Shown piece by piece: positions 12,665-44,300 of a stretch of DNA of 64,000 nucleotides. Each line of letters begins with the position of its first letter. Positions within the stretch are counted from its first letter, which is position 1. Under the pieces are notes generated by a model that saw only the letters and a list, made by a program, of their open reading frames with translations, did not search any database and was not told the origin of the DNA. The DNA is taken from the NCBI RefSeq assembly GCF_053078305.1, contig NZ_CP166879.1; one strand, written 5' to 3'. Made by a program: the position numbers and the translations under genes.

Positions 12665-12671
12665 AGGCCAA

Positions 12672-17447: not shown

Positions 17448-18259
17448 TATGCCGCCTCCACCATGCCCGCTTTCGCCATGCGCGCTTTCACCCAATCACG
17501 CGCTTTCGCCACTTCTGCCGCCGGGTCTTCCGCCGTTTCGCTCCACATCTCAATCAGGTACGGCCCGCAATAGCCACTCTGTTTGAGCGTTTCGAAACAA
17601 CGTTCGAAATCCACTACACCTTCGCCAAACGGCACGTTTTTGAAGACGCCAGGTTTGGTGTCTTTCACATGTACCGCGACGATATGCCCGATTCCGGCCT
17701 GCAACTCCATCTGCACATCGTTGTCCCACGCCGACAGGTTGCCGATATCCGGGTAGAGCTGGAACCACGGATTGTTGAGATAGTGCGCGTAGCCCAGCGC
17801 CTTGCTGATGGAGTTCATCAACGGATAATCCATGATCTCCATCGCCAGCGTCACCTGCGCGCGGCTCGCCATCTCAACGCTCTCTTTCAGGCCGTCACGG
17901 AAACGACGACGCGTTTCGTTATTGGCTTCCTGATAATAAACGTCATAGCCCGCCAGCTGGATCACGCGAATACCAACGTCCTGGGCGAACTGGATAGCTT
18001 TACGCATAATCTCCAGCCCCTGCGCCCGCACCGCGTCATCTTCGCTACCCAGTGGGAAACGACGATGAGCAGAAAGGCACATGGACGGCACGCGCACGCC
18101 GGTTTCAACAATCGCATTGACCAGCGCCAGACGCTGCTCGCGGCTCCAGTCGAGGCGCGACAGGCGCTCGTCCGTTTCATCTACCGACATCTCGACAAAA
18201 TCGAAGCCCAACGTTTTTGCCAGTTGCAGGCGTTCCAGCCAGCACTCCCCAGCGGGGAG
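17447..18259 (-). pseudogene. ulaE: L-ribulose-5-phosphate 3-epimerase UlaE, 5'-truncated (first ~14 codons and start missing)
   Basis: Frame matches UlaE from ...[24 protein letters not shown] onward; upstream the frame hits a stop and island sequence begins. Confidence 0.85.
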
Positions 18260-18436: not shown

Positions 18437-19618
18437 ATGCCACTTACTGTTCGGCAAATTGAGTCGGCCAAACCTGCTGACAAGGATTACAAACTTTCTG
18501 ATGGTCAAGGACTTTACCTTCTTATCAAGAAATCTGGCGCTCGTTACTGGAATCTGAAGTATCGATTTGCGGGTAAAGAAAAGAAATTGGTGATTGGTGT
18601 CTATCCAGGTATATCACTGGCTCTGGCGCGTCAGAAACGGGATGAAGCACGTAAACTCCTCGCTGAAGGAAAAGATCCTTCATATGAAAAACAGGCAAGT
18701 AAACATGCACTAAGAGAAAGTATTGCATGCACATTTTGTACTCTTGCAGAAGAGTTGTTCACACATATGGCTTGTCGTTGGACTGCGGGTTATTTAGCGG
18801 ACCAGCGTGCAAGATTCGAGAATCATATTAATCCCATGCTAGGGAAACGTCCTGTGGCTGATATTCGCCCCTTGGAAATATTGAATGCACTGAGGGTTAT
18901 AGAAAAGAATGGCAAACTTGAAGCGTTACGTAAGACTCGTCAGCTCTGTTCTCAAATATTTGATTACGCCATTGCGACGGGGCGCGCCACTATTAACCCA
19001 GCATCGACTCTCAACAGTGTTGTTCTTCATCCAGAAAAACAGCAGAGACGGATGCTATCTGAAGAACAGTTAGGCGCTTTCATGTACCAAATGAAAGTTT
19101 CAGGCAATTTTATGTCTCTGGTAACGCAAATACTGGTTCTAACTGCTGTTAGAACGGGAGAATTACGCCTTGCTACTTGGGATGAAATTGATTTTACCAA
19201 TGCCTTATGGGTAATCCCAAAAGAGAGAATGAAAATGCGAAGGCCGCATGTTGTTCCACTTTCTCATCAGACTCAAATGTTATTGAAAGAGATAAAAATA
19301 ATCACAGCTCCCCGTAACTCCGAGCTGGTTATTCCTGGTGTATACAGAGATAATCAACCTCGTGGTCGCGGTTGCATCAACGAGTTTCTTCAACAAGTTG
19401 GCTGGCATACATTCACTACAGCTCATGGTTTTCGGCATACTTTCAGTACCATTCTCCATGACCATGATTTCAGCTCTGCCTGGATTGAACTCCAGCTTGC
19501 CCATGTTGATAAAAACATCATGCGCGGCACCTACAACCACGCACAGTATCTCGATGGTCGTCGTGAAATGATGCAATGGTACGCTGACTACATTGATTCA
19601 CTTTCTGAGCAGGCCTGA
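18437..19618 (+). CDS. int: P4-type (phage) tyrosine integrase
   Basis: 393-aa ORF; N-terminal DUF4102-like MPLTVRQIESAKP...KDYKLSDGQGLYL and C-terminal catalytic region (HGFRHT...Y). Confidence 0.9.
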   Translation: MPLTVRQIESAKPADKDYKLSDGQGLYLLIKKSGARYWNLKYRFAGKEKKLVIGVYPGISLALARQKRDEARKLLAEGKDPSYEKQASKHALRESIACTFCTLAEELFTHMACRWTAGYLADQRARFENHINPMLGKRPVADIRPLEILNALRVIEKNGKLEALRKTRQLCSQIFDYAIATGRATINPASTLNSVVLHPEKQQRRMLSEEQLGAFMYQMKVSGNFMSLVTQILVLTAVRTGELRLATWDEIDFTNALWVIPKERMKMRRPHVVPLSHQTQMLLKEIKIITAPRNSELVIPGVYRDNQPRGRGCINEFLQQVGWHTFTTAHGFRHTFSTILHDHDFSSAWIELQLAHVDKNIMRGTYNHAQYLDGRREMMQWYADYIDSLSEQA

Positions 19619-22071: not shown

Positions 22072-22143
22072 CCAGGAAAAAGTCTTAGTCATCCCGGATT
22101 TTCTCTCATCCTCTTTCACTTTCATTTTCATATAGTCAGCAAC

Positions 22144-24488: not shown

Positions 24489-24556
24489 ACCCGTATTGTG
24501 TGCACTTGCCGGGTGCAGCACAGACGCCTGCCCCGGCCAACCATACCGGAACTGCT

Positions 24557-26635
24557 ATGTCACAGACACTTGCACTCCATCCCGCGAAAAAGCGGGATGC
24601 GATTTTCCTTTGGGTTTTGCTGGGCTGGCTGGCATTTATCCTGTTGCCGAGCTGGAGCCTCGATTATGGTCTGCTGGAGTCCACGAGTGATGAGATCCTC
24701 GAGGCGTACAGCTGGTCGCATTTTAATATCAGCTGGCTGTGGTATTTACTCCCGAGTTTGCTGCTGGTTCGCCCGTTTAATGAGGCCAAACGCGAGCAGC
24801 GTAGCCGTCATTATTTTGATGCCGGCTGGGCATTGCTTTGTATAGCGTTTATGGTCATCAGTGCCACCATCGTTGGCCGCGGTCTAGGCTACGCCGCCAT
24901 CGTGCTGTTTATCGAATTAAGCGCGATAATGACGCTGGCCTTAACCCGCCTCGAATGGCTGGGTGGCGACCGCTTTGTGATCGGCTCGCTGATTGCGATT
25001 GTGGCGCTGATTGGCATTTTTATCGTCTGGCCGAGCATCGCCATTTTTATCCCGATGTTCGCCAACGACGCGGGAGAGTTCGCCCCACTGGCGTTTATGA
25101 ATGTGCTCTCGCAGGCCCATATCATTCAGGTGATCGTCAACTCTATCGTCTTATCGATAGCGGTGGGTATTGGCTGCACTTTCTTCGGTCTGGTGCTGGC
25201 GATATATACCACGCGCATCGCTAAACGCAGCGCCGTAATCGGCCGCATCTTTTCCATTCTGCCAATTGTCACGCCACCGTTTGTGGTCGGCTTAGGCGTT
25301 ACGCTCATGATGGGGCGCTCCGGCTACATAACGGAATTTATGGTGGAGTGGTTTGGGCTGACCAACACCAACTGGCTGTATGGTTTTACCGGGATCTGGC
25401 TGGCACAGGTCCTGGCATTTACGCCAATGGCTTTTATGATCCTCGATGGGGCCATTAAAACCATTCATCCCTCGCTGGAAGAAGCCTCCTACACCCTGCG
25501 CGCCAGCCGCTGGCAAACCTTTAGCGGTGTGTTTGTGCCGTTGTTAAAGCCCGCGCTTGCCAATGCCTTTTTAATCGTCGTGGTGCAGTCACTGGCTGAC
25601 TTCAGTAACCCGCTGGTGCTTGGCGGCAACTTCGACGTACTGGCGACGCAAATTTACTTCTACATTACCGGCTCGCAGCTGGATTATCAGGCCGCCAGCA
25701 CCCTTGGCGCTTTCCTGCTGCTGTTCTCGCTACTGGTGTTCTGCGTCCAGTATATGTGGATTGGTAAACGCTCTTACGTCACGGTTTCCGGAAAGTCCTA
25801 CCGCGGCGATGTCCAGCCACTACCGGTCACCCTGGTGTGTAGCGTGGTCGCCATACTTGCGATATGGATTGCCTTTAACGCCCTGCTCTATGGCAGCATT
25901 TTCTACGGCAGCTTCACCGTGAACTGGGGCGTGGACTACACCCTAACGCTGGATAACTTTATCAAGTTATTTGGTCAGGGGATGAGCGACGGCGCGTGGC
26001 CTTCACTGTTAGATACCTTGCTCTACGCCGGGATTGCCGCACCCATTACCGCTATTTTTGGCCTGCTCATCGCCTGGGTGGTGGTGCGCCAACAATTCAA
26101 AGGCAAAAAGACCATCGAGTTCACCACCATGTTGTGCTTTGCCGTACCGGGTACAGTGGCGGGTGTCTCGTATATTCTTGCCTTTAATAGCGCCCCAGTC
26201 TATCTCACCGGAACGGCAGCAATTGTGATTATCTCGATGGTGATGCGTAACGTTCCGGTGGGTATTCGCGCCGGGATTGCAGGTCTGGGGCAGATCGACA
26301 AATCGCTGGATGAAGCCTCACTTAGCCTGCGTGCAGGTTCCCTGCGAACCATTACGCACATTTTACTGCCGTTATTACGCCCAGCTATTCTCTCGGCCCT
26401 GATTTACAGCTTTGTGCGGGCTATCACGACGGTCAGCGCCATCGTCTTTCTCGTCACGCCGGACACCCGCGTGGCAACCGCCTACATCCTTAACCGCGTA
26501 GAAGACGGCGAATATGGCGTAGCCATCGCCTACGGTTCGATTCTGATCGTGGTGATGCTGGCGATTATTTTCCTCTTTGACTGGCTGATCGGTGAAGCAC
26601 GTATTTCCCGTTCTAAAGCCAAAAACCAGGCGTAA
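24557..26635 (+). CDS. afuB: AfuB ABC transporter permease (two fused permease domains)
   Basis: ORF 24500-26635; start at MSQTLALHP gives 692 aa; duplicated ABC permease domains. Confidence 0.88.
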
Positions 26636-26646
26636 TGGAGCGCACT

Positions 26647-27693
26647 ATGAGTCAGAAAAATTTTGTGGAACTGCGCAACGTCACTAAACGATTCGGCAGT
26701 AATATGGTTATCGACAATATCAATCTCACCATCCCACAAGGGCAAATGGTGACGCTGCTCGGTCCTTCCGGATGCGGCAAAACCACCATTCTGCGTCTGG
26801 TTGCCGGGCTGGAAAAACCGAGCGAAGGGCAAATTTTTATAGATGGCGAAGATGTCACGCATCGTTCCATTCAGCAACGCGATATCTGCATGGTGTTTCA
26901 GTCATACGCTCTGTTCCCACATATGTCGCTGGGCGAAAACGTTGGCTATGGGCTGAAAATGCTTGGCGTGTCGCGTAATGAAGTGAAGCAGCGGGTGAAA
27001 GATGCGCTGGCAATGGTGGATCTGGAAGGATTCGAAGACCGCTATGTCGATCAGATTTCCGGCGGTCAGCAACAGCGTGTGGCTCTGGCCCGTGCGTTGA
27101 TCCTCAAGCCAAAGGTGCTGCTGTTTGATGAGCCGTTAAGTAACCTCGATGCCAACCTGCGCCGCAGTATGCGCGATAAGATCCGCGAGCTGCAAAAGCA
27201 GTTTAATATCACGTCGCTCTACGTGACTCACGATCAAAGTGAAGCTTTCGCGGTGTCCGACACTGTACTGGTGATGAATAAAGGTCACATCATGCAGATC
27301 GGTTCACCGCAGGAGCTCTATCGTCAGCCCGCCTCCCGCTTTATGGCAAGTTTTATGGGCGACGCCAACCTGTTCCCGGCGAACTTTAGCGAAGAGTATG
27401 TCGATATCTACGGTTATCGCCTGCCGCGCGCGGCGTATTTCCCGGTGCAAGGTAGAGGCACCGTCGGCGTTCGCCCGGAAGCCATCACCTTAAGCAATCA
27501 CGGCGAAGAGAGTCAGCGTTGTGTTATTCGCCATGTCGCTTACATGGGGCCGCAGTACGAAGTGACCGTAGAATGGCATGGTCAGGAGATTTTATTGCAA
27601 GTCAACGCCACTCGTTTACAGCCCGATACTGGTGAGCACTATTACCTCGAAATCCATCCTTACGGGATGTTTGTTTTAGCGGATTCGGCATAA
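26647..27693 (+). CDS. afuC: AfuC ABC transporter ATP-binding protein
   Basis: ORF 26635-27693; start at MSQKNFVEL (348 aa); Walker [10 protein letters not shown], signature LSGGQQQR, Walker B LLFDEP. Confidence 0.9.
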
Positions 27694-27744: not shown

Positions 27745-28477
27745 AACCAGCCGGAGATTTGTGATGTCTGTCAGCCTGCTTTAGGGGGGACTCTTTCCAT
27801 CCGGTCACCCGCAGCCATTTTTTGAACTTTTCTTCACCCGTTGCTCTTCTCTTATATTTCATTTTCTTGTAAGCGCCCCATCAGCGACGTCTTGTGAAAA
27901 TTGTCCTGTCTGGCAACAATCGCGCCCATCTATATTGATGGGCTCGAACGATGAACTCTCAAACAACACTAGATATCACCGGCTTTCGCACTTATTTTCC
28001 AGACGCATTACGTCTCAGATTTGACGAGCAATTATCTGTCCGGGCAATCGCACAGCAGTTAAGACTCAGTTATTCCCCCATTCACAATCTCTTTCAACGA
28101 ATTAACGCCTCAGGTATTGTCTGACTATGACCCGAGTCCCTTTCATTCGCCCAACCGATACCATACTTTATGCCAACAGAAAGAATGAATGAACCGCGCC
28201 TAAAATCAGTGAAGACACATGGCACAAAGCGCGACATGTCTCACATTTAACCCCTGAGGGGGCAACAAGTATAAAACCGTTTTTTGATTAAGTGGTCGGA
28301 TATGAAAAAGGGAAGGTTTATGTGAAAAATACCTGTGTTTTCTTTGAAAACACACAACAGTATCAGGTTATTTATGTTTATACAGGGCGTTCCAAACTGA
28401 CCTGAATAATTACGCAAGTTGCAACAATAAAAACATTTTTGCCGTAGTGTGAGGTACTCCGGTAAATTGCTTTCCAG

Positions 28478-28675
28478 GTGCAGACAATGACTAACGAAGA
28501 ACTACAGGCAATCGCATTATCCATGCTTGAGCGCCAGCGCGAAAAAGTACACCAGCAACGAGAGTCTTTGCTTAACCCATCTCCATTCACCAGGCCAAAA
28601 CGATTGGAGCTTGAAGCATTCTTGGACAAATACCCACGGCGGCTTAAATCAGGCAAAACCAGACCACCAGGCTGA
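28478..28675 (+). CDS. Hypothetical small protein (weak call)
   Basis: 65-aa ORF in degraded AT-rich region; no recognisable motif. Confidence 0.2.
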   Translation: MQTMTNEELQAIALSMLERQREKVHQQRESLLNPSPFTRPKRLELEAFLDKYPRRLKSGKTRPPG

Positions 28676-29002
28676 TAGCTCACAGTTTGTTCTCCTATTC
28701 AATAAAGCGGATAAGAACCATCAGCGCGGTAGCGTAAGGCATTACTGCGCATTGCTTTACGAGTAATAACAATGGATTTATCACCAGAAGACGCAAAGTT
28801 TTTACGAGAACTGCAACACCGTATGCTCTGAGAAGCCATTATCGAACAGCAAACGGGCATGAGCGCCATAGACCCATTGCGATAAAAACGGGCCTCATCT
28901 CCTTTAGTTGACGACAATTCCAATGCGGATAAAACACGTCCACCACACTGATTACATTTTTCATTAGCACAGTGGTGTAATGCAGCATACGAGGAAAACC
29001 GG

Positions 29003-29197
29003 ATGAATGAGAACAGAATAAAAAGGCTGGAGCAACTGTTACAGGCACGCCAACGGGAGTTTGCCACTAAATGGGGACGTGCCGCGTTGCCACATGAACG
29101 CCTAACCTATTTTCCACTTGAAGACCTCATTAAAAATAATGGCAAAAAAATCAGGCCTGATAAGAAACACTTTTTAGAATGCAATGAAGACAAATAA
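29003..29197 (+). CDS. Hypothetical small protein (weak call)
   Basis: 64-aa ORF preceded by GAGGA ribosome-binding-like motif; no recognisable family. Confidence 0.3.
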   Translation: MNENRIKRLEQLLQARQREFATKWGRAALPHERLTYFPLEDLIKNNGKKIRPDKKHFLECNEDK

Positions 29198-29299
29198 CAA
29201 CAATCTGCATATTGCCACCAACCACAGATGTGGCATCGTTATCAGCGCGCTTGATTTTCTTTATATCCACTGACGAGCTTACCGGGGCACCTTTGTTTG

Positions 29300-29900
29300 C
29301 CGGTCATTCTGGTATCATGCAGATATTTACGGCGTACAAGCCCACTAGCATGACATTGTAATAAGGCCTGAGCCTAACGCTTTAATGTGTGTCATACACT
29401 CAGTGGCGTAATCGTTGACAATATGGTGCATGTAATCGTAAGTGTCCAGCGAAATCCATCTGGTCATAATCTGAAGCATCCGACAAAGTGGTGTCCACCA
29501 AATAAGTGATCTGCGCCCAATATCCTGAGCCGGAACTTTGACGAAGGCCAACGAAAAATGGGGGCGGATGTTACAGAGTTCTCGGTACAGGGGAAAAGTG
29601 GTACCTGTCGCCAGTTCTCCGATCTGTTTAACCGGGAAATTATCTCCTACAGCTTGTCAGAAAGGTCGGTGATGGAGCATCGTTAATACGATTCTGTACG
29701 ATGCATTCACAGTGCCCGGCCAGAGGATGCCCCGTCGCTGCATACGGATCAGGGTTGGCAATATCGAATCGCAGGCTATAGGCAAAGTTAAAAGCCCCAT
29801 GGAGTAACACAAAATATGCCGCACAAAGGAAACGGTCTGAATAACGCAGTGATGGAGAACTTCTTCGGCACACAGCTAAAGCGCATAGTGATCGAGCGCT
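29300..29900 (+). pseudogene. IS3-family transposase OrfB remnant (multiple frameshifts/stops)
   Basis: Frameshifted plus-strand translation gives PNILSRNF...ADVTEF, ...HTDQGWQY... and ...GNGLNNAVMENFFGT..., matching the IS3-family DDE-region consensus. Confidence 0.6.
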
Positions 29901-30744
29901 GATTCTGGCGAACAACTGAACTAACACATCAGAATCTGCATTATGTTAAATAAATATGAAAAGATGGTTTAAATACCCCGTTACTTTTGACTTACACTAT
30001 ACGGTATCGCTCGTTTAATATTCGCACCGGCCAGATTTTTATTTCTATTAGTTGTCACAATACTGAATGCGTACGACCACAGTATTCTGGCTCCTGTGTG
30101 GTCATGCTTTAATTCTGCGTTCCGGGCAGATAAGCAGTTGCTTGCAGGAATCCTTCTTGTGTTAATATCAGTTCCCCTTTTTACCAGTGCTGATTTCCAC
30201 ATTCCGTCCAACAGAGCTTATAGCCTTTCCCTGGATTATAGCATTGTCCGGCTGAAGTTCTTTTTGAATAATAATAGAAGCACTGCTGGCAGATCCAGTC
30301 CGTTTTTCATAACCAACTGTACTGATAACCATAATCTAATCAGTAGAAATTGAGTCGAAAATAAGCACTACTCCATACAGGATAATTAGAGGTCAGTTTG
30401 ATTATTCACAATTCATCATCAGCATTTTCTGTTTCTGACGAAATCAACATGAAAAGAACCATATATGATAATTATTATAATAACGGCTTTAATTGGAATA
30501 CATATATTACAACGTATTATATATAATTGGTATTCTGGGAACTATATTCTCAAAATACAGTAGAAACGAGGTATGTTTCTGGTGGAAAGGACAGTGGGAT
30601 TAAAAAGTAAGAATTGATAAAAAAAACGCCAGCAACACATAGTGCCGACGGAGGGAATACCCCATGGAGAAAATGTGATGCCTAGAGCATCATGAATATA
30701 TAATTAAAAATAGTTGGCGTTGTCAATACTTTCACAAAAATAAT

Positions 30745-30808
30745 TTTCGTAGTTTCGTAGTTTCGTAGTTTCGTAGTTTCGTAGTTTCGTAGTTTCGTAG
30801 TTTCGTAG
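30745..30808. repeat. Perfect tandem repeat (TTTCGTAG) x 8
   Basis: Eight head-to-tail copies of an 8-bp unit, directly visible in sequence. Confidence 0.95.
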
Positions 30809-32692
30809 TATAGAAAGATATTTTTATGCATGACCTACCTGAATTTGCTCCGGGTAGAGGTTATAAATAAAAATTGAATCACGACAAACACAATATTCAT
30901 AGTGTGGCGATGCCTACGCCAGCAAAAATAGCGCCAATAATGTTGGGAATATAATAGACACCAGACACACAGGCATCTCACTCCTTAACAAACAATAATC
31001 ATGATGTTTACTTTTACTTCACTAACTGTTTGCGCCTAAAGTGCGCACACTTAACCATTCAATAACAAATGGCAATATCCATAGCCATACGACTTTACCT
31101 TGTAATGTTCGGTATTTCTTTATAATTATTCTGGGAAATCTATCATTTATTTTTAAAATCAAATTATCTTGTTGTTTAAAAATAAGTTCACATACTTTAT
31201 CATCTTCTTCCACCATCAACATCTCTGCACACTTAAACATTTCAGAACATTCCTTTAGCACAGAAGAGTGATTATATGTCCAGTTCCCAGGCAATAATGC
31301 TTATGGATATTTAATTCATAATTTAGAGAATATTTTGTAATAATATTTGGCAGTATTCAGAAATACCTGAAAAATCATACTATACAGCCCCAGGGAATAG
31401 ATGAAGATTCTAAAAAAGCATTTCAACAATATATGCTTGTTAAAAATCCATATCGAAATGCCGTTGCAGCATTAATATATGCCTCATTCATAAAATGTAA
31501 AAGAGCAAGCTCGTACCAGTAGGGGGAAAATTCATTGATATGTCCTGTCAATACGTACAGAGCCCTGTCATGCTTGCCAGCACGTAACAATTCCGTCCCC
31601 AGTAACCAGCGTGTCCCCTGATTATTCTCAGGGTTATATGTTAGTATTTTATCAATGAGTATAACGGCATCCTGATGACGCTGTAAATGAACATTCGCCA
31701 GAATTGCAGCATAAAGAGCGCAAATGCATATGCCAGATAAGCGTGAATATCAATGATGTCAGGAGCATGTCAGGCAAGACGCCTGAGTTTGTTGACGTAA
31801 TTTGTTTCGTTTATTTCATCACTATCGTATGCGTCAAGAGTTTTTTCAAACTCATCCCGAAATGAGCCAAGCCTGGTTTCAGGAAATAAGAAATACCCCT
31901 GGTTATTGTTCACTTAAAAGTATAATTTGTAATTCAAATCCTGAGCCTGTAAAACGGGGAGTAACATATTCTACTCTGAAGAGAATAAAAGTCGTGATGC
32001 GATGTATCAAGCCCGGATTGTAATCCCAGATTAACATAGATCACAAAACAACTTATTCTTCACTAACGTCAAGATAAATATCGTTGTATGCCCTATCACG
32101 ACTACGAATACCAGCAAGATACAACTGACATACGGAAAGATACCACGTTTTTTACTCCCGAAAATAACGCTAAAAAGCTACTTCCCCATCGTTTGTCCTT
32201 AGTATTGTCAGCGCCAACAATGTGGGCTGGCATGATAAAGCTGTCTAGGAAATCGTTCACCTCCTCAGCGGACAATCCAAATGGTGATTGTCTCTGTTAA
32301 ACGTTTATTTTGAAGGTCGACTGAATAAGGTGATGACGCTGTAGAATTTTTCACGTGACACAGAATTTTGAACGCTTTCTCTTACAATATTTCAATGTTT
32401 CTATCAGTATTCGCCGGAAGAAGTCATCGACCAAATCATCCCAGTCGTCTCGCACCACTGACCATTCATGGTTGACATGTGGTGGAAATCCGCTTCTACA
32501 GAAACCATTTTTTATTCGCAAAACCGAACACGCCATACGGATAGCTGTTAACTGGCATGCCGAGGCAGTCGTTATTTATATTTAGTTTTGTCAATAATCT
32601 TTATTTTTTGTAAAAGGTAAATATAAATTATTCTCATTATTGTTTGTATTTGTGTATTGTCTTGCCGGTTAACATGATCGGAGATTAGTAAT

Positions 32693-34783
32693 ATGCGAAT
32701 AACCACTCTGGCTTCCGTAGTCATTCCCTGTCTCGGATTTTCAGCCAGCAGCATAGCTGCTGCAGAGGATGTGATGATTGTCTCGGCATCCGGCTATGAG
32801 AAAAAGCTGACTAACGCAGCCGCCAGTGTTTCTGTGATTAGCCAGGAGGAATTGCAGTCCAGCCAGTACCACGATCTGGCGGAGGCTCTGAGATCAGTAG
32901 AGGGTGTGGATGTTGAAAGTGGTACGGGTAAAACCGGTGGGCTGGAAATCAGCATCCGAGGAATGCCAGCCAGTTACACGCTGATACTGATTGATGGTGT
33001 TCGTCAGGGCGGAAGCAGTGACGTGACTCCCAACGGTTTTTCTGCCATGAATACCGGGTTCATGCCCCCTCTGGCCGCCATTGAGCGTATTGAGGTTATC
33101 AGGGGGCCGATGTCCACACTGTATGGCTCTGATGCGATGGGCGGTGTGGTGAATATCATTACCAGAAAGAATGCAGACAAATGGCTCTCTTCCGTCAATG
33201 CAGGGCTGAATCTGCAGGAAAGCAACAAATGGGGTAACAGCAGCCAGTTTAATTTCTGGAGCAGTGGTCCCCTTGTGGATGATTCTGTCAGCCTGCAGGT
33301 ACGCGGTAGCACACAACAGCGTCAGGGCTCATCGGTCACATCACTGAGCGATACAGCAGCCACGCGTATTCCTTATCCCACGGAGTCACAGAATTATAAT
33401 CTTGGTGCACGTCTTGACTGGAAGGTGTCGGAGCAGGATGTGCTCTGGTTTGATATGGATACCACCCGGCAGCGTTATGATAACCGGGATGGGCAACTGG
33501 GGAGTCTGACGGGGGGATATGACCGGACCCTGCGCTATGAGCGAAACAAAATTTCAGCTGGCTATGATCATACTTTCACCTTCGGAACATGGAAATCGTA
33601 TCTGAACTGGAACGAGACAGAAAATAAAGGTCGTGAGCTCGTACGCAGTGTACTGAAGCGCGACAAATGGGGGCTTGCCGGTCAGCCGCGGGAGCTTAAG
33701 GAATCGAACCTTATCCTGAATTCATTACTGCTTACCCCTCTGGGAGAATCTCATCTGGTTACGGTGGGGGGCGAGTTTCAGAGCTCGTCCATGAAAGACG
33801 GAGTTGTCCTTGCCAGCACAGGTGAAACTTTCCGGCAGAAAAGCTGGTCGGTATTTGCTGAGGATGAGTGGCATCTCACGGATGCACTTGCGCTGACTGC
33901 GGGCAGCCGCTATGAACATCATGAGCAATTCGGGGGACACTTCAGTCCGCGTGCATATCTGGTCTGGGATGTGGCAGATGCCTGGACGCTGAAAGGCGGT
34001 GTGACCACGGGATATAAGGCACCCAGAATGGGGCAGCTACATAAAGGGATTAGTGGTGTGTCCGGGCAGGGAAAAACAAATCTACTTGGTAACCCCGACC
34101 TGAAGCCGGAAGAGAGCGTCAGTTATGAGGCTGGGGTGTATTACGATAACCCCGCCGGTCTGAATGCCAATGTCACAGGTTTTATGACTGACTTCTCCAA
34201 CAAGATTGTCTCTTATTCCATAAATGATAACACCAATAGCTATGTAAACAGCGGAAAGGCCCGGTTGCACGGTGTGGAATTTGCCGGCACATTGCCGCTG
34301 TGGTCAGAGGATGTCACGCTGTCACTGAATTACACCTGGACCCGAAGTGAACAACGTGATGGTGATAACAAAGGTGCGCCGCTGAGTTATACCCCTGAAC
34401 ACATGGTGAATGCGAAACTGAACTGGCAGATCACCGAAGAGGTGGCATCATGGCTGGGTGCCCGTTATCGCGGGAAAACACCACGTTTCACCCAGAATTA
34501 TTCGTCACTGAGCGCTGTACAGAAGAAAGTGTATGATGAGAAAGGAGAATACCTGAAAGCCTGGACGGTGGTGGATGCAGGTCTGTCGTGGAAGATGACG
34601 GATGCCCTGACGCTGAATGCTGCGGTGAATAACCTGCTCAACAAGGATTACAGTGACGTGAGCCTGTTCAGTGCCGGTAAGAGTACGCTGTATGCCGGTG
34701 ATTACTTCCAGACGGGATCATCAACAACGGGATATGTGATACCTGAGCGAAATTACTGGATGTCGCTGAACTATCAGTTCTGA
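32693..34783 (+). CDS. iha: TonB-dependent outer-membrane receptor, Iha-like (IrgA homologue adhesin / siderophore receptor)
   Basis: 696-aa ORF; signal peptide, TonB box (DVMIVSAS), plug domain and C-terminal aromatic beta-barrel terminus (NYQF); length and sequence recalled as Iha. Confidence 0.7.
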   Translation: MRITTLASVVIPCLGFSASSIAAAEDVMIVSASGYEKKLTNAAASVSVISQEELQSSQYHDLAEALRSVEGVDVESGTGKTGGLEISIRGMPASYTLILIDGVRQGGSSDVTPNGFSAMNTGFMPPLAAIERIEVIRGPMSTLYGSDAMGGVVNIITRKNADKWLSSVNAGLNLQESNKWGNSSQFNFWSSGPLVDDSVSLQVRGSTQQRQGSSVTSLSDTAATRIPYPTESQNYNLGARLDWKVSEQDVLWFDMDTTRQRYDNRDGQLGSLTGGYDRTLRYERNKISAGYDHTFTFGTWKSYLNWNETENKGRELVRSVLKRDKWGLAGQPRELKESNLILNSLLLTPLGESHLVTVGGEFQSSSMKDGVVLASTGETFRQKSWSVFAEDEWHLTDALALTAGSRYEHHEQFGGHFSPRAYLVWDVADAWTLKGGVTTGYKAPRMGQLHKGISGVSGQGKTNLLGNPDLKPEESVSYEAGVYYDNPAGLNANVTGFMTDFSNKIVSYSINDNTNSYVNSGKARLHGVEFAGTLPLWSEDVTLSLNYTWTRSEQRDGDNKGAPLSYTPEHMVNAKLNWQITEEVASWLGARYRGKTPRFTQNYSSLSAVQKKVYDEKGEYLKAWTVVDAGLSWKMTDALTLNAAVNNLLNKDYSDVSLFSAGKSTLYAGDYFQTGSSTTGYVIPERNYWMSLNYQF

Positions 34784-35429
34784 TAATAACAAAACGCTAT
34801 CACTGACGGTAGAATACGTTGCCACTGCAACTCCTGGCGGAACAGTGGCAACGTATTAGGTTAAGTGCATTTCCGATCCGCTAATGAGATTTCGTTACCA
34901 ACAACTAATATCGTCACAGGAAATGCACGGATTATTTTTAACTTATCATTTACATACTTGTCCAGAGTGTAAGCGCACCGTGAAGGACGAGGGGTAAAAA
35001 TTAGTTTACAGAGAGAGTGACGTTCCAGGGCAACAACTCTTTCATGCGGTTGGCAGGCCAGGTGTTGATTACACTGATCACGTGGCGTAGCCACGTTTCC
35101 GGCTCGATTCCGTTAAGTTTTGCAGCTACCGATCAGGCTGTACATCACTGCCGCACTATCGCTCGTCATCTCAAAGTCCGGTCTCGTCAGCAGGAAGGTA
35201 TCATTCTCTCCCGCCATTTTTCCGGAAGCCCGGTCAGATAAGTCCCTTTGTCTATCGCTGACTCCTGGCTCATAACCCGGTTAGCAGAATGCAGGGTCAC
35301 CACCTCGCCACGACCGAATCCGGATAAGTCAATTGCACCTTCTCAATCGCCATTTTGTCACAATTAAGTTTGATAAAGCAGGTCACTGAGGTGTACTGGC
35401 AATAGCGGACACTACCATTTGTTCTTTTT

Positions 35430-36248
35430 TTAAGCAGCCATCTGATGATATTTTTCCCTGAAGGCTGCCGGGGAGATATTCCCCAGACGAGAGTGACGAC
35501 GCTGACGATTGTAGAAAATCTCAATGTATTCCCGTATTACTGAGATGGCCTCATCCCGGCTCTTAAAACGATAGTGGCTCAGGCTCTCATTTTTCAGCGT
35601 TCCCCAGAAGCTTTCCATCGGAGCGTAGTCGTAACAGTTACCTTTACGCGACATTGATGTTTTCAGACCAAACTGCTCCTGTATGACCCGGTAATCGTAT
35701 GCGCAGTACTGTGAACCTCGATCGGAGTGGTGGATTAGCCCGGCAGGTGGGCGCTGGCTCCTGAGCGCCATAAACAGGGCTTTACCTGTCAGCTCTTTTG
35801 TCATGCGCTCTCCCATGGCGTAGCCGACAATTTCGCACGTATAAACATCTTTGATGCCAGCGAGGTACAACCATCCCTCCTGTGTGGCAACATACGTCAG
35901 GTCCGCCACCCAGACCTGATTTGGTGCTGTAGGAGCGAACGTCTGGTTCAGCAGATTTGGCGCAACTGGCAGATTGTGGTTCGAGTTCGTAGTCGCTCTG
36001 AACTTGCGTTTATGCTTACAGCGTAGCCTTAGCTCCTTACGAAGACGTGCCAGTCGGTCACGACCAACGATGATGCCATTCTCTGCCAGCTCCGTCTGGA
36101 GCCGCCGGGTTCCATATGTTTCGCGAGTGCGGATATGTGCCACCTTAATCTCCAGTTTTAGCCGCTCATCACTTTGTTTTCTGTCTGAGGGTTCATGCTG
36201 TACCCGGTTGTAATAACCGCTCCTGGATACACCAAATACCTGACACAT
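35430..36248 (-). CDS. IS600 OrfB (DDE integrase-core transposase; expressed as OrfAB by frameshift)
   Basis: 272-aa ORF with HSDRGSQY and SMSRKGNCYDYAPMESFWGTLKNE motifs. Confidence 0.88.
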   Translation of the reverse strand: MCQVFGVSRSGYYNRVQHEPSDRKQSDERLKLEIKVAHIRTRETYGTRRLQTELAENGIIVGRDRLARLRKELRLRCKHKRKFRATTNSNHNLPVAPNLLNQTFAPTAPNQVWVADLTYVATQEGWLYLAGIKDVYTCEIVGYAMGERMTKELTGKALFMALRSQRPPAGLIHHSDRGSQYCAYDYRVIQEQFGLKTSMSRKGNCYDYAPMESFWGTLKNESLSHYRFKSRDEAISVIREYIEIFYNRQRRHSRLGNISPAAFREKYHQMAA

Positions 36249-36283
36249 CGCTTCAATGGGAAATTGTTGTCGCCATTGTTCGA

Positions 36284-36586
36284 TTAACGCGTATTTTTCA
36301 GCGACTCCTGTGCAAAATACGCTGTTGCTTTTTTTAATATATCTCGCTCAAGGCGAGCTTCATTTAACGCCTTACGCAGTTGCAGAATTTCAGATTCCAG
36401 TTCAGCCACCGTGCGGGAACCAGGAGTACCGAGCCCTTTTCTGGCGGCGGTAACCCATTGTCCTAAAGTGCCTTCAGGAAGAGATAATCGGGAAGCGCCT
36501 TCACTGATCGAAAGTTGATTTTCAAGAACCGTTCTGACAGCTTCGGCTTTGAACTCTTTAGAGTAACGTTGGGTTTTTCTGCTCAT
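36284..36586 (-). CDS. IS600 OrfA (HTH transposase subunit)
   Basis: 100-aa ORF, HTH plus leucine-zipper-like region typical of IS3 OrfA. Confidence 0.85.
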   Translation of the reverse strand: MSRKTQRYSKEFKAEAVRTVLENQLSISEGASRLSLPEGTLGQWVTAARKGLGTPGSRTVAELESEILQLRKALNEARLERDILKKATAYFAQESLKNTR

Positions 36587-37071
36587 TATTAGCTCCTTCT
36601 GATGCCATTCTATTTCAGGAAGGAGTGTCCGTTAAACTCAGGCTACCTCACATCAGATGCCAACGCAACATTCCCTGCCATAAGCGCAGCCAGAACGCCT
36701 GTTACAACTAAACTATTCCTGGTGATATTGCTCATTCTCTTTCTCCATTTGTCGAGGATTTGGGCGTTGATTTTCGACGAGCTCCAGTTGCAACTCCAGT
36801 CTTAAGGTTATATCGGGATAGCACACAAGTGTTACACGCATAAACAAAAAATACCCAAAAAGTATTATTTCATAACATTTATTCATGGAAGATAACAATG
36901 AAACGATTCAGCTATATTTTTTAAACTAAAAAATACTTTATAAGAACATCCCAATTTTGGAGGCGATACTCATTCTCCCCCTGATAAATAAACACTCTCG
37001 TCCGACAGGGCGTGGAAACTATCAATAACCACAGTAATGATGCTGACTTTGTTTTCGTTTAAGGAAATGAC

Positions 37072-38628
37072 ATGCACGATTACCTGCTTTTTTTACTGGG
37101 ACTTACCCCCCTTCTGGCGATGATCATTTTGATTCTGAAAGTCAAAATGCCCATACACTATTCTGTGCTTAGCACTCTCCTGCTCACGCTAATCCTTGGA
37201 GGGGTTTTCTGGCAGACGCCAGTTATGGATATGGGATCTGCTGTGGTATACGGCGCAATCAAAGGTTTGTGGCCGATTGTGATTGTCATCCTTGCTGCCA
37301 TTTACAGCTATAACCTGATGAATGCGACAAAAAGCATGGATATTCTGAGAAATGTTCTAGCCAGCGTGAGCGATGATAAACGTATCCAGGTTCTTCTTAT
37401 CTCATGGTGTTTTGGCGGATTTCTTGAGGCGGCCGCCGGATACGGTACAGCGGTAGCAATCCCCATAGGTATACTCATTGCACTGGGCTTTAACCCACTA
37501 AAAGCAGCGATTGCATCACTGGTTGCTAATACAGTCCCTACAGCGTTTGGGGCAGTCGGTATACCTGTCTCCGTGCTTGCTGAACAAGTTAATTTACCTG
37601 TAACCACACTCAGCGGGACGATTATTCTTCAGCTGGCACTGTTCAACATTCTGCTCCCCTTCGTTATCGTCACGATTATCGGTGGAGGTATGAAAGCTAT
37701 ACGAGGCGTAGGGTTAATTACCCTGATGTGCGGTATTAGCACATTGATACCTCAGTATCTGGTGGCTGTTAATCTTGGCGCAGAGCTCCCGGCTTTCGCA
37801 GGAAGTCTTGTCAGTCTGATCGTTATAGTCTTTATGGCAAAAAACCGTAAAGAAAAAACAGAACCTGAATTTCTTATTGAGAGTTCAGCAGATAGCGCCA
37901 GCGCACTTTCATACTCTCGTGGGGCGTTGTTACGTGCGTGCTCAATCTACATTCTGATCTTTCTGTTCATTCTGCTTTGCTCTCCACTGTTCCCGACGAT
38001 AAAAAGTGCAGTGTCTCAGATTGCCTCGTCACTCACCTTCTCTCTGAGTAACGGCAGCAATCTGTCGATGAAAATTGAATGGATCGCAACCCCCGGTGTT
38101 CTGATTATCATTGCCAGTGTTATTGGCGGCTTGATACAGAAAGCATCCCTGTCATGCCTGTTAAACGTATTTGTCAGCACGGTAAAACAACTTAAAAACT
38201 CCATTATTGCCATTTCTGCGATTGTTGCCATGGCAACGGTAATGGATGTCTGTGGGTTGATTGGCACTCTGGCACAGAGCCTTGTGGATCTGACTGGTGG
38301 GGCCTACCTCTTCATTGCTCCGGTTATCGGCGCTCTTGGTACATTTGTTACTGGTAGTGACACAAACTCCAACATTCTGTTTGGTAAATTGCAGACTACT
38401 GCGGCTGAAAAATTGCATGTGGACCCGCTCTGGCTGGCTGCCGCAAATACATCTGGCGCAACAGGCGGCAAAATGATTTCTCCTCAGAGTATTGCTATCG
38501 CTGTTTCAGCCACCCGTATGGATGGTCAGGGCAGCGTAATCATGTCAGGAACACTGAAGTACTGCTTTGCTTATATTGTTATTCTTGGACTGAAAGTAGG
38601 CCTTGTCTACCACCTGTTCATGGCCTGA
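37072..38628 (+). CDS. lctP: L-lactate permease family (LctP) transporter
   Basis: 518-aa polytopic membrane protein with LctP-family features. Confidence 0.8.
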   Translation: MHDYLLFLLGLTPLLAMIILILKVKMPIHYSVLSTLLLTLILGGVFWQTPVMDMGSAVVYGAIKGLWPIVIVILAAIYSYNLMNATKSMDILRNVLASVSDDKRIQVLLISWCFGGFLEAAAGYGTAVAIPIGILIALGFNPLKAAIASLVANTVPTAFGAVGIPVSVLAEQVNLPVTTLSGTIILQLALFNILLPFVIVTIIGGGMKAIRGVGLITLMCGISTLIPQYLVAVNLGAELPAFAGSLVSLIVIVFMAKNRKEKTEPEFLIESSADSASALSYSRGALLRACSIYILIFLFILLCSPLFPTIKSAVSQIASSLTFSLSNGSNLSMKIEWIATPGVLIIIASVIGGLIQKASLSCLLNVFVSTVKQLKNSIIAISAIVAMATVMDVCGLIGTLAQSLVDLTGGAYLFIAPVIGALGTFVTGSDTNSNILFGKLQTTAAEKLHVDPLWLAAANTSGATGGKMISPQSIAIAVSATRMDGQGSVIMSGTLKYCFAYIVILGLKVGLVYHLFMA

Positions 38629-38677
38629 GAAAAAACAACAAAAGGACGTGGAATATTAATCAACAGGAGAAATTTCT

Positions 38678-39397
38678 GTGAATGTTAACTTTTTCGTCAC
38701 CTGCATTGGTGATGCGTTTAAATCCCGGATGGCACAAAAGAGTGTGCTGTTACTGGAGCAATTGGGTTGCAATGTCCATTTCCCCGAAAAGCAGGGATGT
38801 TGTGGTCAGCCAGCGATAAATGGCGGTTATGTTCGTGATGCCATCCCGGGCATGAAAAATCTCATATCTTCGCTGGAAGAGAATGACTGGCCGGTAGTAT
38901 CTCCTGCCGGGTCATGCACTTACACGATAAAAAATTACGCTCGCTATCTCAGTGAAGAACCTGAGTGGGCGGCACGAGCTGAAAAAGTGGCTGAACGCCT
39001 GCATGATTTGACATCATTTATAGTAAATCATCTTGGCATCACAGATGTTGGGGCAAAACTCAATGGTCGCGCTGTGTACCATCCCTCCTGCAGCCTTTCC
39101 CGTAAGCTGGGTGTAACCAGAGAGCCGCTTTTGCTACTTGAGAATGTACAGGGGCTTGAGCTACTGCCGTTTCACGCTCAGGAAACGTGCTGCGGGTTTG
39201 GCGGCACATTCTCTGTAAAAATGGCGGAGATCTCTGGTGAAATGGTGAAAGAGAAAGTCGGGCATATTATGGATGTTAAACCTGATTTTCTTATCGGGGC
39301 TGACGCCAGTTGCCTGCTAAACATCGGCGGTCGGCTTAACCGTGAAGGGCATCCTGTAAAAGTGATGCATATTGCTGAAGTCCTGATGCACAGATGA
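38678..39397 (+). CDS. lutA: Lactate utilisation protein A (LutA/YkgE-like, cysteine-rich CCG-domain Fe-S oxidoreductase)
   Basis: 239-aa ORF, GTG start with AGGAGA RBS; two CCG-type cysteine motifs (CCGQPA, CCGFGG). Confidence 0.82.
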   Translation: MNVNFFVTCIGDAFKSRMAQKSVLLLEQLGCNVHFPEKQGCCGQPAINGGYVRDAIPGMKNLISSLEENDWPVVSPAGSCTYTIKNYARYLSEEPEWAARAEKVAERLHDLTSFIVNHLGITDVGAKLNGRAVYHPSCSLSRKLGVTREPLLLLENVQGLELLPFHAQETCCGFGGTFSVKMAEISGEMVKEKVGHIMDVKPDFLIGADASCLLNIGGRLNREGHPVKVMHIAEVLMHR

Positions 39398-39407
39398 GGT
39401 AAACAGA

Positions 39408-40823
39408 ATGTCTTTGAAAACAAGTGATATCAGGTTTAAAGAGCGTATCCGTATTCAGATTCAGGACCCGATCATGCGAAAAGCTGTGGCTAACGCACAG
39501 GAGCGCATAGGGACTAATCGACAGAAAATGGTTGATGAACTGGGACACTGGGAGGAATGGCGTTCACGAGCTGAACAGATTCGTCGGCATGTTCTGGAAA
39601 ATCTTGATGCTTATTTGTATCAATTGTCCGAAAAGGTTACTGCGAATGGCGGGCATGTATATTTTGCCCGTACCAGAGAGGATGCAACCAGTTACATACT
39701 GAAGGTGGCGAAAGAAAAAAACGCCAGGAAGGTTGTTAAATCCAAATCAATGGTGACTGAGGAAATTGGCATGAATGCCGTTCTTCAGAAAGCCGGGATA
39801 CCCGTGATTGAAACGGACCTTGGGGAATATATTCTTCAGCTAGCACATGAGCCACCATCGCATGTGGTTGTGCCGGCAATACATAAAGATCGCCATCAAA
39901 TCCGCAGAGTTTTACATGAACATCTGGGGTATGACGGGCCTGAAACTCCAGAAGCAATGACATTGTTCATCCGTGAGAAAATCAGACAAGATTTTCTGAG
40001 TGCTGAAGTTGGCGTAACGGGGTGTAACTTTGCCGTTGCAGAAACAGGGTCAGTCTGCCTTGTTACAAACGAAGGCAACGCACGGATGTGCACCACATTA
40101 CCTAAAACACATATTGCTGTTATGGGTATGGAGCGTATTGCTCCGACATTCCAGGAGGTGGATGTTCTGATTACCATGCTTGCAAGGAGTGCTGTCGGGG
40201 CGAGACTGACAGGTTATAACACCTGGCTTACAGGCCCCAGAGAAGAAGGACATGTTGATGGTCCGGAAGAGTTCCATCTCGTTATTGTTGACAATGGGCG
40301 TTCAGAGATTCTCGGCTCAGAATTCAGCGATGTATTGCGATGTATCCGCTGCGGTGCCTGCATTAATACCTGCCCGGCTTATCGTCAGATTGGTGGGCAT
40401 GGTTATGGTTCAATCTACCCGGGGCCAATCGGCGCGGTTATTTCCCCATTGCTTGGTGGATATGAAGACTTTAAGGATTTACCCTATGCCTGCTCATTGT
40501 GCACTGCCTGCAATGGGGTATGTCCTGTAAAAATACCTCTGGCAACGCTAATACAAAAACATCGCCAGGTTATGGCAGAGTCTGAAATCACACCATTAAC
40601 GGAACGCCGTATAACCAGAGCATTCAATTACATAAACAGCCATCCGGCGTTGTGGAAGGTAGGTATGGTTGCTGGGGCCAAAACAGCCCGTCTGTTCATC
40701 AGGAAAGGAAAAACGCCGATTAGTGTTGGGGCGATAAAAGAATGGACTGAAGCCAGAGACCTGCCATCACCTGATGGAGAAAGCTTCCGTAGTTGGTTCA
40801 AGCGACATAAGAAGGAGGGGTAA
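39408..40823 (+). CDS. lutB: Lactate utilisation protein B (LutB/YkgF-like, 4Fe-4S ferredoxin + LUD domain)
   Basis: 471-aa ORF with two CxxCxxCxxxCP ferredoxin motifs (CIRCGACINTCP, CSLCTACNGVCP). Confidence 0.85.
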   Translation: MSLKTSDIRFKERIRIQIQDPIMRKAVANAQERIGTNRQKMVDELGHWEEWRSRAEQIRRHVLENLDAYLYQLSEKVTANGGHVYFARTREDATSYILKVAKEKNARKVVKSKSMVTEEIGMNAVLQKAGIPVIETDLGEYILQLAHEPPSHVVVPAIHKDRHQIRRVLHEHLGYDGPETPEAMTLFIREKIRQDFLSAEVGVTGCNFAVAETGSVCLVTNEGNARMCTTLPKTHIAVMGMERIAPTFQEVDVLITMLARSAVGARLTGYNTWLTGPREEGHVDGPEEFHLVIVDNGRSEILGSEFSDVLRCIRCGACINTCPAYRQIGGHGYGSIYPGPIGAVISPLLGGYEDFKDLPYACSLCTACNGVCPVKIPLATLIQKHRQVMAESEITPLTERRITRAFNYINSHPALWKVGMVAGAKTARLFIRKGKTPISVGAIKEWTEARDLPSPDGESFRSWFKRHKKEG

Positions 40824-40826
40824 TTT

Positions 40827-41525
40827 ATGGAAAACAGAGAGGAATTTCTCGTTGCGATCGCCAGAAAGCTTGGCAGACCAGTAAGACATATTCCCGAAGC
40901 AATGCCGGAGCCTGTAAATACGCTGGCTACGACACGTTTAACAGAGTTGACATCAGACCAACGCTGTGAGGCGTTTATTAAATTTGCCTCGGAAGTGATG
41001 CTTGCCGAGTGTGTTCTGGTGTCGCCTGAGAACGCACCATCAACAGCCTTAGACATCTGTTGGAAGTTCGGTTCCGGGCCAGTCATTATCAGCAACGATC
41101 AACGACTGGTCGATACAGGGATTACGCCATTGCTACAAAAAGAAATGGACGCTGCTCTGTGGGATCCGGAGAAGGGCGATGAAAATATCCATCTTGCTGA
41201 AAAGGCAAAAACTGGTGTCGTTTTCGCTGAGTATGGGCTGACAGAATCAGGAGGCATTGTCTTATTCTCCGCACCAGAACGTGGGCGCTCAGTAAGCCTT
41301 TTGCCTGAAGCATCATTATTTGTTTTACGTAAAAGCACCATTCTCCCCAGAGTGGCGCAGCTTGCGCAAAAACTTCATGATATGGCTCAGGAAGGACAAC
41401 GGATGCCGTCCTGTATAAATCTGATTGGAGGCCCAAGTTCTACTGCAGATATAGAACTGATCAAAGTTGTTGGCGTACATGGTCCTGTACATGCAACCTA
41501 TTTGATCATTGATGATTGCGATTAA
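40827..41525 (+). CDS. lutC: Lactate utilisation protein C (LutC/YkgG-like, LUD domain)
   Basis: 232-aa ORF immediately after lutB; operon context. Confidence 0.78.
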   Translation: MENREEFLVAIARKLGRPVRHIPEAMPEPVNTLATTRLTELTSDQRCEAFIKFASEVMLAECVLVSPENAPSTALDICWKFGSGPVIISNDQRLVDTGITPLLQKEMDAALWDPEKGDENIHLAEKAKTGVVFAEYGLTESGGIVLFSAPERGRSVSLLPEASLFVLRKSTILPRVAQLAQKLHDMAQEGQRMPSCINLIGGPSSTADIELIKVVGVHGPVHATYLIIDDCD

Positions 41526-42752: not shown

Positions 42753-44300
42753 CTACTTGCGTAGCGATAAAATTGCCCGTGCGGTTTCAGCACGGTTATA
42801 GATCTGCATTTTTTTTATTGCAGCATCCACATCTTCACCGCTTTTCTTATTCAGTTTAATCAGAAACTCAACAGGTAATAGCGAAGCTAAATTTTCAAAT
42901 TTTGATTCAGACCAAGTAATGGTTGCAACAGCCCCTTCAGTTCTCTTAATCATTAGTTTTTTAAGTAATTCTAAACGCTCTGGCTCAACAGTTATATAAC
43001 CAATCGGCAGGGTTAATGCACTATCAGAATTAGGTTGACCGTGGTATTGCACCAAAGCAATCACATCAGGAATTAAGAGGATCTCCAAACGATCAAATTT
43101 AGCCTCTGAAGTAAGGCCAATACCGGTAGGAAAACGACCTAAGTGCCGCTTACGCTCTTGACGTTTTTCACCTTCATCTGCACTTGAGTGTAAAAGCGAA
43201 ATGCGAGCAATCTTATCATCGGCATAATTGCCAAGTATATCGCCTAGAGCGCGAGTAAAACGCGAAAGTTGACTACCATTAGCTCCCCACAGTGGTACTT
43301 TACTGCTATACCACAGCGCTTTTGGAGCTGTTTTACCTATATAATCACGTAATGCATTATGCAACATACTAATGAACAGCTTAGAATTGTGCGGCAAATA
43401 AACAGCCCCTAACATGCCGGTAGTCAATGAAGTACCGTAGCCAGTTTTACGTTGTTCACGAGCCTCTATCCAGCCGGAATAGTTGAACTTATAACCATTA
43501 GCAAATTGTAACAACACTTTATCATTTGCTAGTTTACAGAAATCTTCACAGTCGATACCGAATTCATCTAGTTTATGTTCTCCCAAAAAATCTGCGATAT
43601 GAGCTTCCAGCTCGTTTGAAAGCGGCAGCCGGGTGTTACCTAAATATTCATAGGAACGAGTAAATTTCTGCGGCTCAATGCTCCCAGCAGAAACACCGTA
43701 GCTAACCTCTATCTCTATTGGGAGCTGCACCATCTCATGCGAACTACAGCCCATTATCTTATATAATTTAGTCCGTTGACGCTCATACTCGCTGTTGCGG
43801 CTGAGCAAAAGATGGTGCCGAAACTGGGAACTAAAAGCCTCTGTTACCGCAGCAGCATCTCCCCCGATCTGATGCCGCGGCAATAGCTCTGGCAGTCCAG
43901 AAGTAAAACGACGATTTGGTTGCGGTTTACATATCGAAAGAGTTAGTAGATCGAATGCAACTTCCTCCGTACATTCTTGATATTTAACTAAACTTGGCTT
44001 CCCACCATTATTAGCTGCATGCTTACGTAGGAATGAGCTAGCCTCAATATGCCCATCAGGATTAATGTTGATCAGTCTGTTAGCCAGCAACCCATCAAGC
44101 AATACCTCTCGCTCACGATCAGTTAGACCAAAGTAATTCTGTAACTCGCTGGGATAGAGTTGATCAAAAATCAGCAGCAAGCGACATGCAAACTGTTCAA
44201 TTCCAGGCATCAGTTTTTCAGTGGTCAAAGCGCAGTTGATCTTGTAACTACGCGCAGGTAGTAAAACGGTAATCAGATTACCCAGACGTGGTTCTGACAT
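42753..44300 (-). CDS. Hypothetical 515-aa protein, translationally coupled partner of the NERD-kinase-helicase gene
   Basis: Long ORF with start ATG overlapping upstream TAA (TAATG); no recognisable motif by eye. Confidence 0.8.
   Translation of the reverse strand: MSEPRLGNLITVLLPARSYKINCALTTEKLMPGIEQFACRLLLIFDQLYPSELQNYFGLTDREREVLLDGLLANRLININPDGHIEASSFLRKHAANNGGKPSLVKYQECTEEVAFDLLTLSICKPQPNRRFTSGLPELLPRHQIGGDAAAVTEAFSSQFRHHLLLSRNSEYERQRTKLYKIMGCSSHEMVQLPIEIEVSYGVSAGSIEPQKFTRSYEYLGNTRLPLSNELEAHIADFLGEHKLDEFGIDCEDFCKLANDKVLLQFANGYKFNYSGWIEAREQRKTGYGTSLTTGMLGAVYLPHNSKLFISMLHNALRDYIGKTAPKALWYSSKVPLWGANGSQLSRFTRALGDILGNYADDKIARISLLHSSADEGEKRQERKRHLGRFPTGIGLTSEAKFDRLEILLIPDVIALVQYHGQPNSDSALTLPIGYITVEPERLELLKKLMIKRTEGAVATITWSESKFENLASLLPVEFLIKLNKKSGEDVDAAIKKMQIYNRAETARAILSLRK

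Follow-up and report, generated by a model that had tools for sequence, protein, structure and literature searches.

Iha, the IrgA-homologue adhesin, takes its name from its homology to IrgA (PMC6920203). It is presented as a catecholate siderophore receptor that transports ferric enterobactin in the statements of PMC8179508, PMC3064760 and PMC6920203 that cite Leveille 2006, and its transport activity is TonB-dependent (PMC6920203). Deletion and complementation of iha in O157:H7 altered adherence (PMC3064760), and in uropathogenic Escherichia coli (UPEC) CFT073 the gene belongs to the direct Fur regulon (PMC7157518). The subtypes iha-LAA and iha-pO113 are reported to resemble the EDL933 allele less closely in sequence (PMC6920203). 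The gene is a routinely typed virulence-associated marker in E. coli that produce Shiga toxin (STEC), in UPEC and in avian pathogenic E. coli, and its presence is relevant to the description of a strain; it has also been studied as a vaccine antigen, the title of PMC2736566 being concerned with immunisation with iron-receptor antigens. Here we describe a receptor gene on a 64,000-nucleotide stretch of contig NZ_CP166879.1 (RefSeq assembly GCF_053078305.1), referred to in its whole length as the window. We identify the gene as iha, coding for a ~76-kDa TonB-dependent transporter of the outer membrane, which is predicted to act as a Fur-controlled siderophore receptor/adhesin and is carried on a cassette flanked by insertion sequences (IS) within an island in the ula operon, and we place the probability of this reading at roughly 95%. 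Nothing was found to contradict the identification of the gene as iha.

Identity and architecture of the receptor

Several comparisons support the assignment. First, NF010012 is the sole NCBIfam equivalog model that the protein passes, at 1614.4 bits against a cut-off of 924 and with residues 1–696 of 696 aligned. Second, the protein is identical at 694 of 696 residues to Iha of O157:H7 Sakai (ECs_1360; substitutions V245A and F659Y) and at 693 of 696 to that of CFT073 (c3610; V245A, D469N and F659Y), where the window residue is written first, such that the window carries V245 and F659 and the references A245 and Y659; the coding sequence differs from Sakai iha at 7 of 2091 nucleotides. Third, the amino-acid sequence is exactly that of WP_024176004.1 from strain GPEC1176, which bears the RefSeq name 'bifunctional siderophore receptor/adhesin Iha'. 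Fourth, a megablast search of 5426 complete E. coli genomes with window positions 32300–35200 detects the locus in 1755 of them, with the best place at least 99% identical in 1381 records, and among the best matches listed all are annotated 'iha: bifunctional siderophore receptor/adhesin Iha', with DNA identities of 99.7–100%. Judged by these identities, the window allele is the EDL933/CFT073-type iha itself and not merely a relative of it. The earlier note had recognised the 696-residue TonB-dependent receptor as Iha from its length and sequence, and had named a best match to another receptor family, at low identity to Iha, as the outcome that would speak against this; comparison with the enterohaemorrhagic E. 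coli and UPEC proteins returns near-identity, no such other family provides the best match, and the recognition is upheld.

The protein families that come next are those of the CirA, IreA, FepA and CfrA type, and the nearest protein with a solved structure is CirA (E 2.4e-78), with PirA, FepA and PfeA also among the best structure-sequence matches. An orthologue of IrgA, CirA, IreA, FepA or CfrA that resembles Iha only in length would account for such matches, but the probability of this is negligible. Every NCBIfam model for the other TonB-dependent receptor families considered (CirA, IreA, FepA, CfrA and Fiu) falls far below its curated cut-off (score/cut-off in bits: CfrA, 507/1200; PRK13483, 490/927; PRK13513, 472/942; IreA, 400/1197; CirA, 327/745; Fiu, 77/686; two FepA-family subfamily models, 273/493 and 241/583), whereas NF010012 is passed by a wide span, and the residue identities with the reference Iha proteins already refute a different receptor.

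The gene is one unbroken long open reading frame (ORF) in the ORF listing of the window, with an ATG start and a TGA stop. It is a real gene and not a chance ORF, since the frame is single and intact, a Shine-Dalgarno sequence precedes it, its product carries Pfam domains, and a RefSeq iha annotation lies at matching coordinates. The predicted product has the parts of a TonB-dependent outer-membrane transporter, namely a plug and a barrel, a TonB box, a signal peptide and a C-terminal aromatic residue, the signal peptide and the C-terminus being assigned by inspection. The signal peptide ends in an A-x-A-type segment and contains a basic residue as well as a hydrophobic core, and the terminal residue is the phenylalanine of ...NYQF. 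The Pfam barrel domain, TonB_dep_Rec_b-barrel (PF00593), spans residues 220–648 (E 7.9e-68). The segment ETMVVTA is the TonB box of CirA. It stands at the N-terminus of mature CirA (PDB 2hdf) and aligns column for column with DVMIVSA of the window protein.

Downstream of the stop codon, RNA folding identifies a stem-loop (Table 1) of -30.1 kcal/mol (z = -4.2), and none of 200 shuffled sequences folds as well. It falls inside the block common to CFT073 and is possibly a terminator or an mRNA-stabilising hairpin; a terminator scan called no canonical terminator 3' of iha, the hairpin having no T-run. A scan of positions 31500–36700 against Rfam matched no leader or small-RNA family. RefSeq also places a 60-residue hypothetical protein, WP_000922606.1, at 32572–32754 on the minus strand, antisense to the start and promoter of iha; in this A+T-rich sequence the call is probably spurious.

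Predicted Fur control, transport and adhesion

A Fur-box-like array of overlapping sites lies ahead of iha, in the 80 bp leading up to the ribosome-binding site, where A+T content is 83%. The 19-mer GATAATGATAATCATTATC is matched at best at 13 of 19 positions, at 32623, followed by 12 of 19 at 32617 and 11 of 19 at both 32620 and 32626; the 7-1-7 motif is matched best at 32622 (10 of 14), and GATAAT-like hexamers are enriched in 32580–32660, a segment within the top 1.4% of those in the window. The 190 bp 5' of the ATG, beginning at 32503, are identical in the window and in CFT073. In that strain the published Fur summit from chromatin immunoprecipitation sequencing (ChIP-seq) lies at 3450905 (Table S5A, PMC7157518) and the iha start codon at 3450866, which places the summit 39 bp 5' of the ATG, at the equivalent of window position 32654 and beside the array. 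For iha, the supplementary expression table for CFT073 fur mutants has entries of 181 and 362 in two of the three columns that it contains (PMC7157518). Because the promoter region is identical to that of CFT073, and because a ChIP-seq summit has been published there, we strongly infer that Fur represses iha in the window as well.

The near-identical alleles suggest how the gene would operate. In iron-replete cells, Fur-Fe2+ would occupy the iha promoter and repress transcription, and in iron-limited settings such as the gut or urinary tract iha would be strongly derepressed. From its architecture, the protein is predicted to be exported via Sec and inserted into the outer membrane via the beta-barrel assembly machinery, and TonB, acting through the TonB box, would energise import of ferric catecholates (enterobactin and its breakdown products) through the plugged barrel. 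For near-identical alleles, the literature describes TonB-dependent uptake of the catecholate siderophores enterobactin and DHBS. As in the published alleles, surface loops of Iha may additionally promote adherence to epithelial cells.

An alternative that we consider rather unlikely is that Iha is a catecholate siderophore transporter only, and that its 'adhesin' activity is indirect, reflecting an iron-supply fitness effect or overexpression and not true receptor-ligand adhesion. Pfam detects the layout of a canonical transporter and no additional adhesin domain, iha mutants are also slower to grow in the iron-limited setting of the adherence assays (PMC3064760), and a host receptor for Iha is not named in PMC3064760, PMC6920203 or PMC8179508. 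Nevertheless, deletion and complementation in O157:H7 shifted adherence per cell in short assays (PMC3064760), and, in the account of Tarr et al. 2000 that PMC6920203 gives, Iha at its discovery conferred adherence on a non-adherent laboratory strain.

The reading of the gene as a Fur-controlled siderophore receptor/adhesin has to be set against several points that count against it. The function and regulation ascribed to the window copy are carried over from published alleles by near-identity, and V245 and F659 depart from both reference alleles. A simple sigma-70 scan called no plus-strand promoter 5' of iha. The 13/19 match to the Fur consensus is not significant alone, as the 64-kb window holds 30 sites with scores of 13 or more, and for this reason we rely on promoter identity with CFT073 and on the ChIP-seq summit; the upstream Fur box whose presence had been proposed as a check is thus supported indirectly, by an array inside a CFT073-identical promoter with a summit close by. 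Finally, adding an iha deletion to a CFT073 fepA iroN mutant left susceptibility to enterobactin-beta-lactam conjugates unchanged (PMC8179508), and Iha is thus at most a minor route for such conjugate cargo.

The iha cassette and its island

The mobile unit that carries the gene is a ~3.2-kb cassette with IS elements on its flanks. This cassette, common to the window and the CFT073 pathogenicity island, is bounded by IS elements or their remnants in both. A larger block is common to the iha region of Sakai SpLE1 and takes in an A+T-rich, ORF-poor stretch 5' of iha; G+C content is 0.398 for 28250–32692 versus 0.518 for iha. Within the ~4.4 kb of 28250–32690, only short ORFs and a transposase remnant are present. 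At the position that corresponds to the transposase remnant 3' of the gene, GPEC1176, CFT073 and CE0007a all carry the annotation 'transposase domain-containing protein', marked as frameshifted and incomplete. For the adjoining IS600 copy, the GPEC1176 annotation gives an 'IS3-like element IS600 family transposase' whose frameshift is programmed.

These surroundings could suggest that the gene, although Iha by sequence, is carried along, silent or in decay, by a degraded island, with poor expression or none and no functional relevance in this strain. The gene lies among IS elements and transposase remnants, ~4.4 kb of A+T-rich, ORF-poor DNA (G+C content 0.40) lies 5' of it, the sigma-70 scan found no plus-strand consensus promoter, and the closest host genomes are those of livestock isolates of unknown pathotype. 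However, we regard this as very improbable: the ORF is intact, with only 6–7 nucleotide differences from the references, the promoter-proximal 190 bp match CFT073 exactly, where iha is Fur-bound and strongly derepressed, and the IS-flanked arrangement is the normal, functional one in both CFT073 and Sakai.

The region from 18.3 kb to beyond 64 kb is a horizontally acquired, integrase-borne mosaic island that carries iha, and it has the features by which genomic islands are recognised: a terminal integrase, a junction that is site-specific and flanked by repeats, and the lack of the island in most E. coli genomes. Core homology common to 5424 of the 5426 genomes ends at query position 960, corresponding to window position 18259 inside ulaE, and the junction with the adjoining P4-type integrase is present in only 63 of them. 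The integrase gene abuts the truncated ulaE. The right end of the island lies outside the window, and right-end features are taken from GPEC1176, where the island covers ~61 kb between ulaD and the truncated ulaE. An imperfect direct repeat of 14 nt (TCCCCRGCGGGGAG) is found at both ends of the GPEC1176 island; the copy at the right end, beside ulaD, is the imperfect repeat TCCCCGGCGGGGAG. Doubled TGGGGGCTA motifs stand just inside each end, and they could be integrase arm sites; repeats and motifs together are located at window 18246–18420 and, for the right end in GPEC1176, at L005 30034–30128. PMC7686366 counts the ulaE-ulaD interval among the integration sites of pathogenicity islands in UPEC.

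Two other candidates for the island were set aside. A tRNA attachment site was rejected, as the window contains no tRNA gene and the island sits inside ulaE instead, and identity with the entire GPEC1176 island was rejected, as the two are collinear only over window positions 14538–53583 and the right-hand part with cdiA differs. The linkage from afuC to iha occurs in 116 of the 5426 genomes, and the best overall matches to the context are bovine and chicken isolates. The insertion splits the ulaABCDEF ascorbate operon.

Following the integrase, the island carries UhpA-, UhpB- and UhpC-like genes, afuABC, the A+T-rich stretch and then iha. The afuABC genes occupy 23457–27693, and the locus including the uhpA-, uhpB- and uhpC-like genes 19901–27693. 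The RefSeq name, 'ferric ABC transporter', suggests an iron transporter. Published work on AfuABC reportedly supports sugar-phosphate import, and because of this, together with the preceding uhpA/B/C-like genes, afuABC is probably a sugar-phosphate importer and not an iron system. At the far end of the window lies a CdiA-type gene (56166–64000, minus strand), whose listed ORF has repeats of the filamentous-haemagglutinin kind and, at residues 2285–2335, a PT-VENN pre-toxin domain. The frame remains open where the window ends, such that the N-terminal secretion domain and cdiB fall outside. The earlier note had cited cdiA, afuABC and the integrase as marks of a pathogenicity- or fitness-like island. 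The island context holds, given the integrase that abuts truncated ulaE at a published site; afuABC is present as claimed, but probably in a sugar-phosphate role, and the CdiA-type gene is recognisable by its repeats and PT-VENN domain, although its N-terminus is out of view.

Further cargo lies downstream of iha. An L-lactate permease gene and lutABC, coding for lactate-oxidation iron-sulfur proteins, occupy 37072–41525 between IS600 and IS remnants, and IS66-family elements are also present. A Mokosh type I anti-phage defence pair, MkoA/MkoB, is encoded on the minus strand at 42753–49258 of the same island; the 1652-residue protein with NERD, kinase and superfamily 1 helicase domains matches MkoA (PADLOC PDLC03921, 1305 bits), and the 515-residue protein beside it matches MkoB (207 bits). 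To the left of the island, in the core genome, IS609 (IS200/IS605 family; 11456–13100) interrupts a TetR/AcrR regulator gene and carries a 402-residue TnpB/InsQ ORF, which the CE0007a annotation marks as a pseudogene because of an internal stop.

Already published are the gene and its dual role, its control by Fur, the IS-flanked cassette and the ula integration site, none of which is new biology. Not obviously described are the particular cargo mosaic of the island and the V245/F659 allele, the latter already in RefSeq. We suggest tentatively, as a minority possibility, that the exact combination at this site (a ula-integrated island with iha, uhpABC-like genes and afuABC, lactate permease and lutABC, Mokosh type I and a CdiA toxin) has not been formally described and could serve livestock-associated E. 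coli as a 'fitness island' for gut colonisation. In that case, iha would be inherited together with genes for carbon-source uptake and not with classical toxins. The V245/F659 allele could also differ from the reference alleles in ligand or adhesion properties, which is much less likely than that the mosaic is undescribed. For annotation, the label iha is secure for the gene, and the region around it from 18.3 kb can be marked as an acquired island.

Table 1. Positions of the iha gene, its parts and the elements around it, in window coordinates.
Feature	Position	Strand	Basis
Left island/chromosome junction inside 5' end of ulaE, att-like repeat TCCCCAGCGGGGAG	18246..18259	.	homology break
P4-type tyrosine integrase, left island end	18437..19618	+	NCBIfam NF007246 integrase domain, E 2e-75; RefSeq annotation
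Larger block common to the iha region of O157:H7 Sakai SpLE1	28250..35360	.	blastn, 97.5–98.6% identity
Minimal iha cassette common to the CFT073 pathogenicity island	32204..35384	.	blastn, 99.6% identity
Fur-box-like array, overlapping sites	32617..32646	+	consensus match, hexamer enrichment, CFT073 ChIP summit nearby
Shine-Dalgarno GGAG, 9 nt 5' of ATG	32680..32683	+	sequence
iha coding sequence, 696 aa plus stop	32693..34783	+	ORF, NF010012 match, iha annotation in 99.7–100% identical genomes
Predicted signal peptide, ~aa 1–24, MRITTLASVVIPCLGFSASSIAAA	32693..32764	+	by inspection; cleavage site approximate
TonB box DVMIVSA, aa 26–32	32768..32788	+	alignment to CirA N-terminus
Plug (cork) domain, aa 40–152	32810..33148	+	Pfam PF07715, E 5.5e-28
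TonB-dependent beta-barrel, aa 220–696, C-terminal motif ...LNYQF	33350..34780	+	PF00593
Stem-loop, 15-bp stem, no U-tract, 30 nt past stop codon	34813..34857	+	folding
Transposase-gene remnant directly 3' of iha	35001..35151	-	annotation in GPEC1176, CFT073, CE0007a
IS600 (IS3 family) copy flanking the cassette	35430..36586	-	ORFs and GPEC1176 annotation

Comparison with known systems

CirA (PDB 2hdf) and Vibrio cholerae IrgA have the TonB-dependent catecholate-receptor fold in common with Iha, and the TonB box and plug of CirA align well with those of the window protein. However, both are only distant paralogues or homologues of Iha, the CirA model reaching 327 bits against its cut-off of 745. 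The iha-LAA/LPA and iha-pO113 subtypes of STEC strains negative for the locus of enterocyte effacement belong to the same family and reside on a mobile island or a plasmid beside adhesin or autotransporter genes (PMC6920203). By their published description the window allele is set apart from the LAA and pO113 subtypes, although the GPEC1176 ula island carries agn43, as does LAA module IV.

The closest relatives are the reference alleles of Sakai and CFT073, and from these the window differs in its surroundings. Sakai Iha (ECs_1360), whose counterpart in EDL933 is on the tellurite-resistance/adherence island OI-43/OI-48, has the same length of 696 residues, and ~7 kb of flanking DNA is common to the window. 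Unlike the Sakai/EDL933 island, that of the window contains neither the ter nor the ure cluster and has other gene cargo, and it is integrated at ulaE-ulaD whereas the Sakai/EDL933 island occupies serW/serX. The likeness to CFT073 c3610 on PAI-CFT073-pheV is that of the 3.2-kb cassette at 99.6% identity, which takes in the 190 bp 5' of the ATG and the transposase remnant 3' of the gene. In CFT073, the neighbours of iha are sat, iutA and pap genes, whereas in the window they are afuABC, the lactate-utilisation genes and Mokosh.

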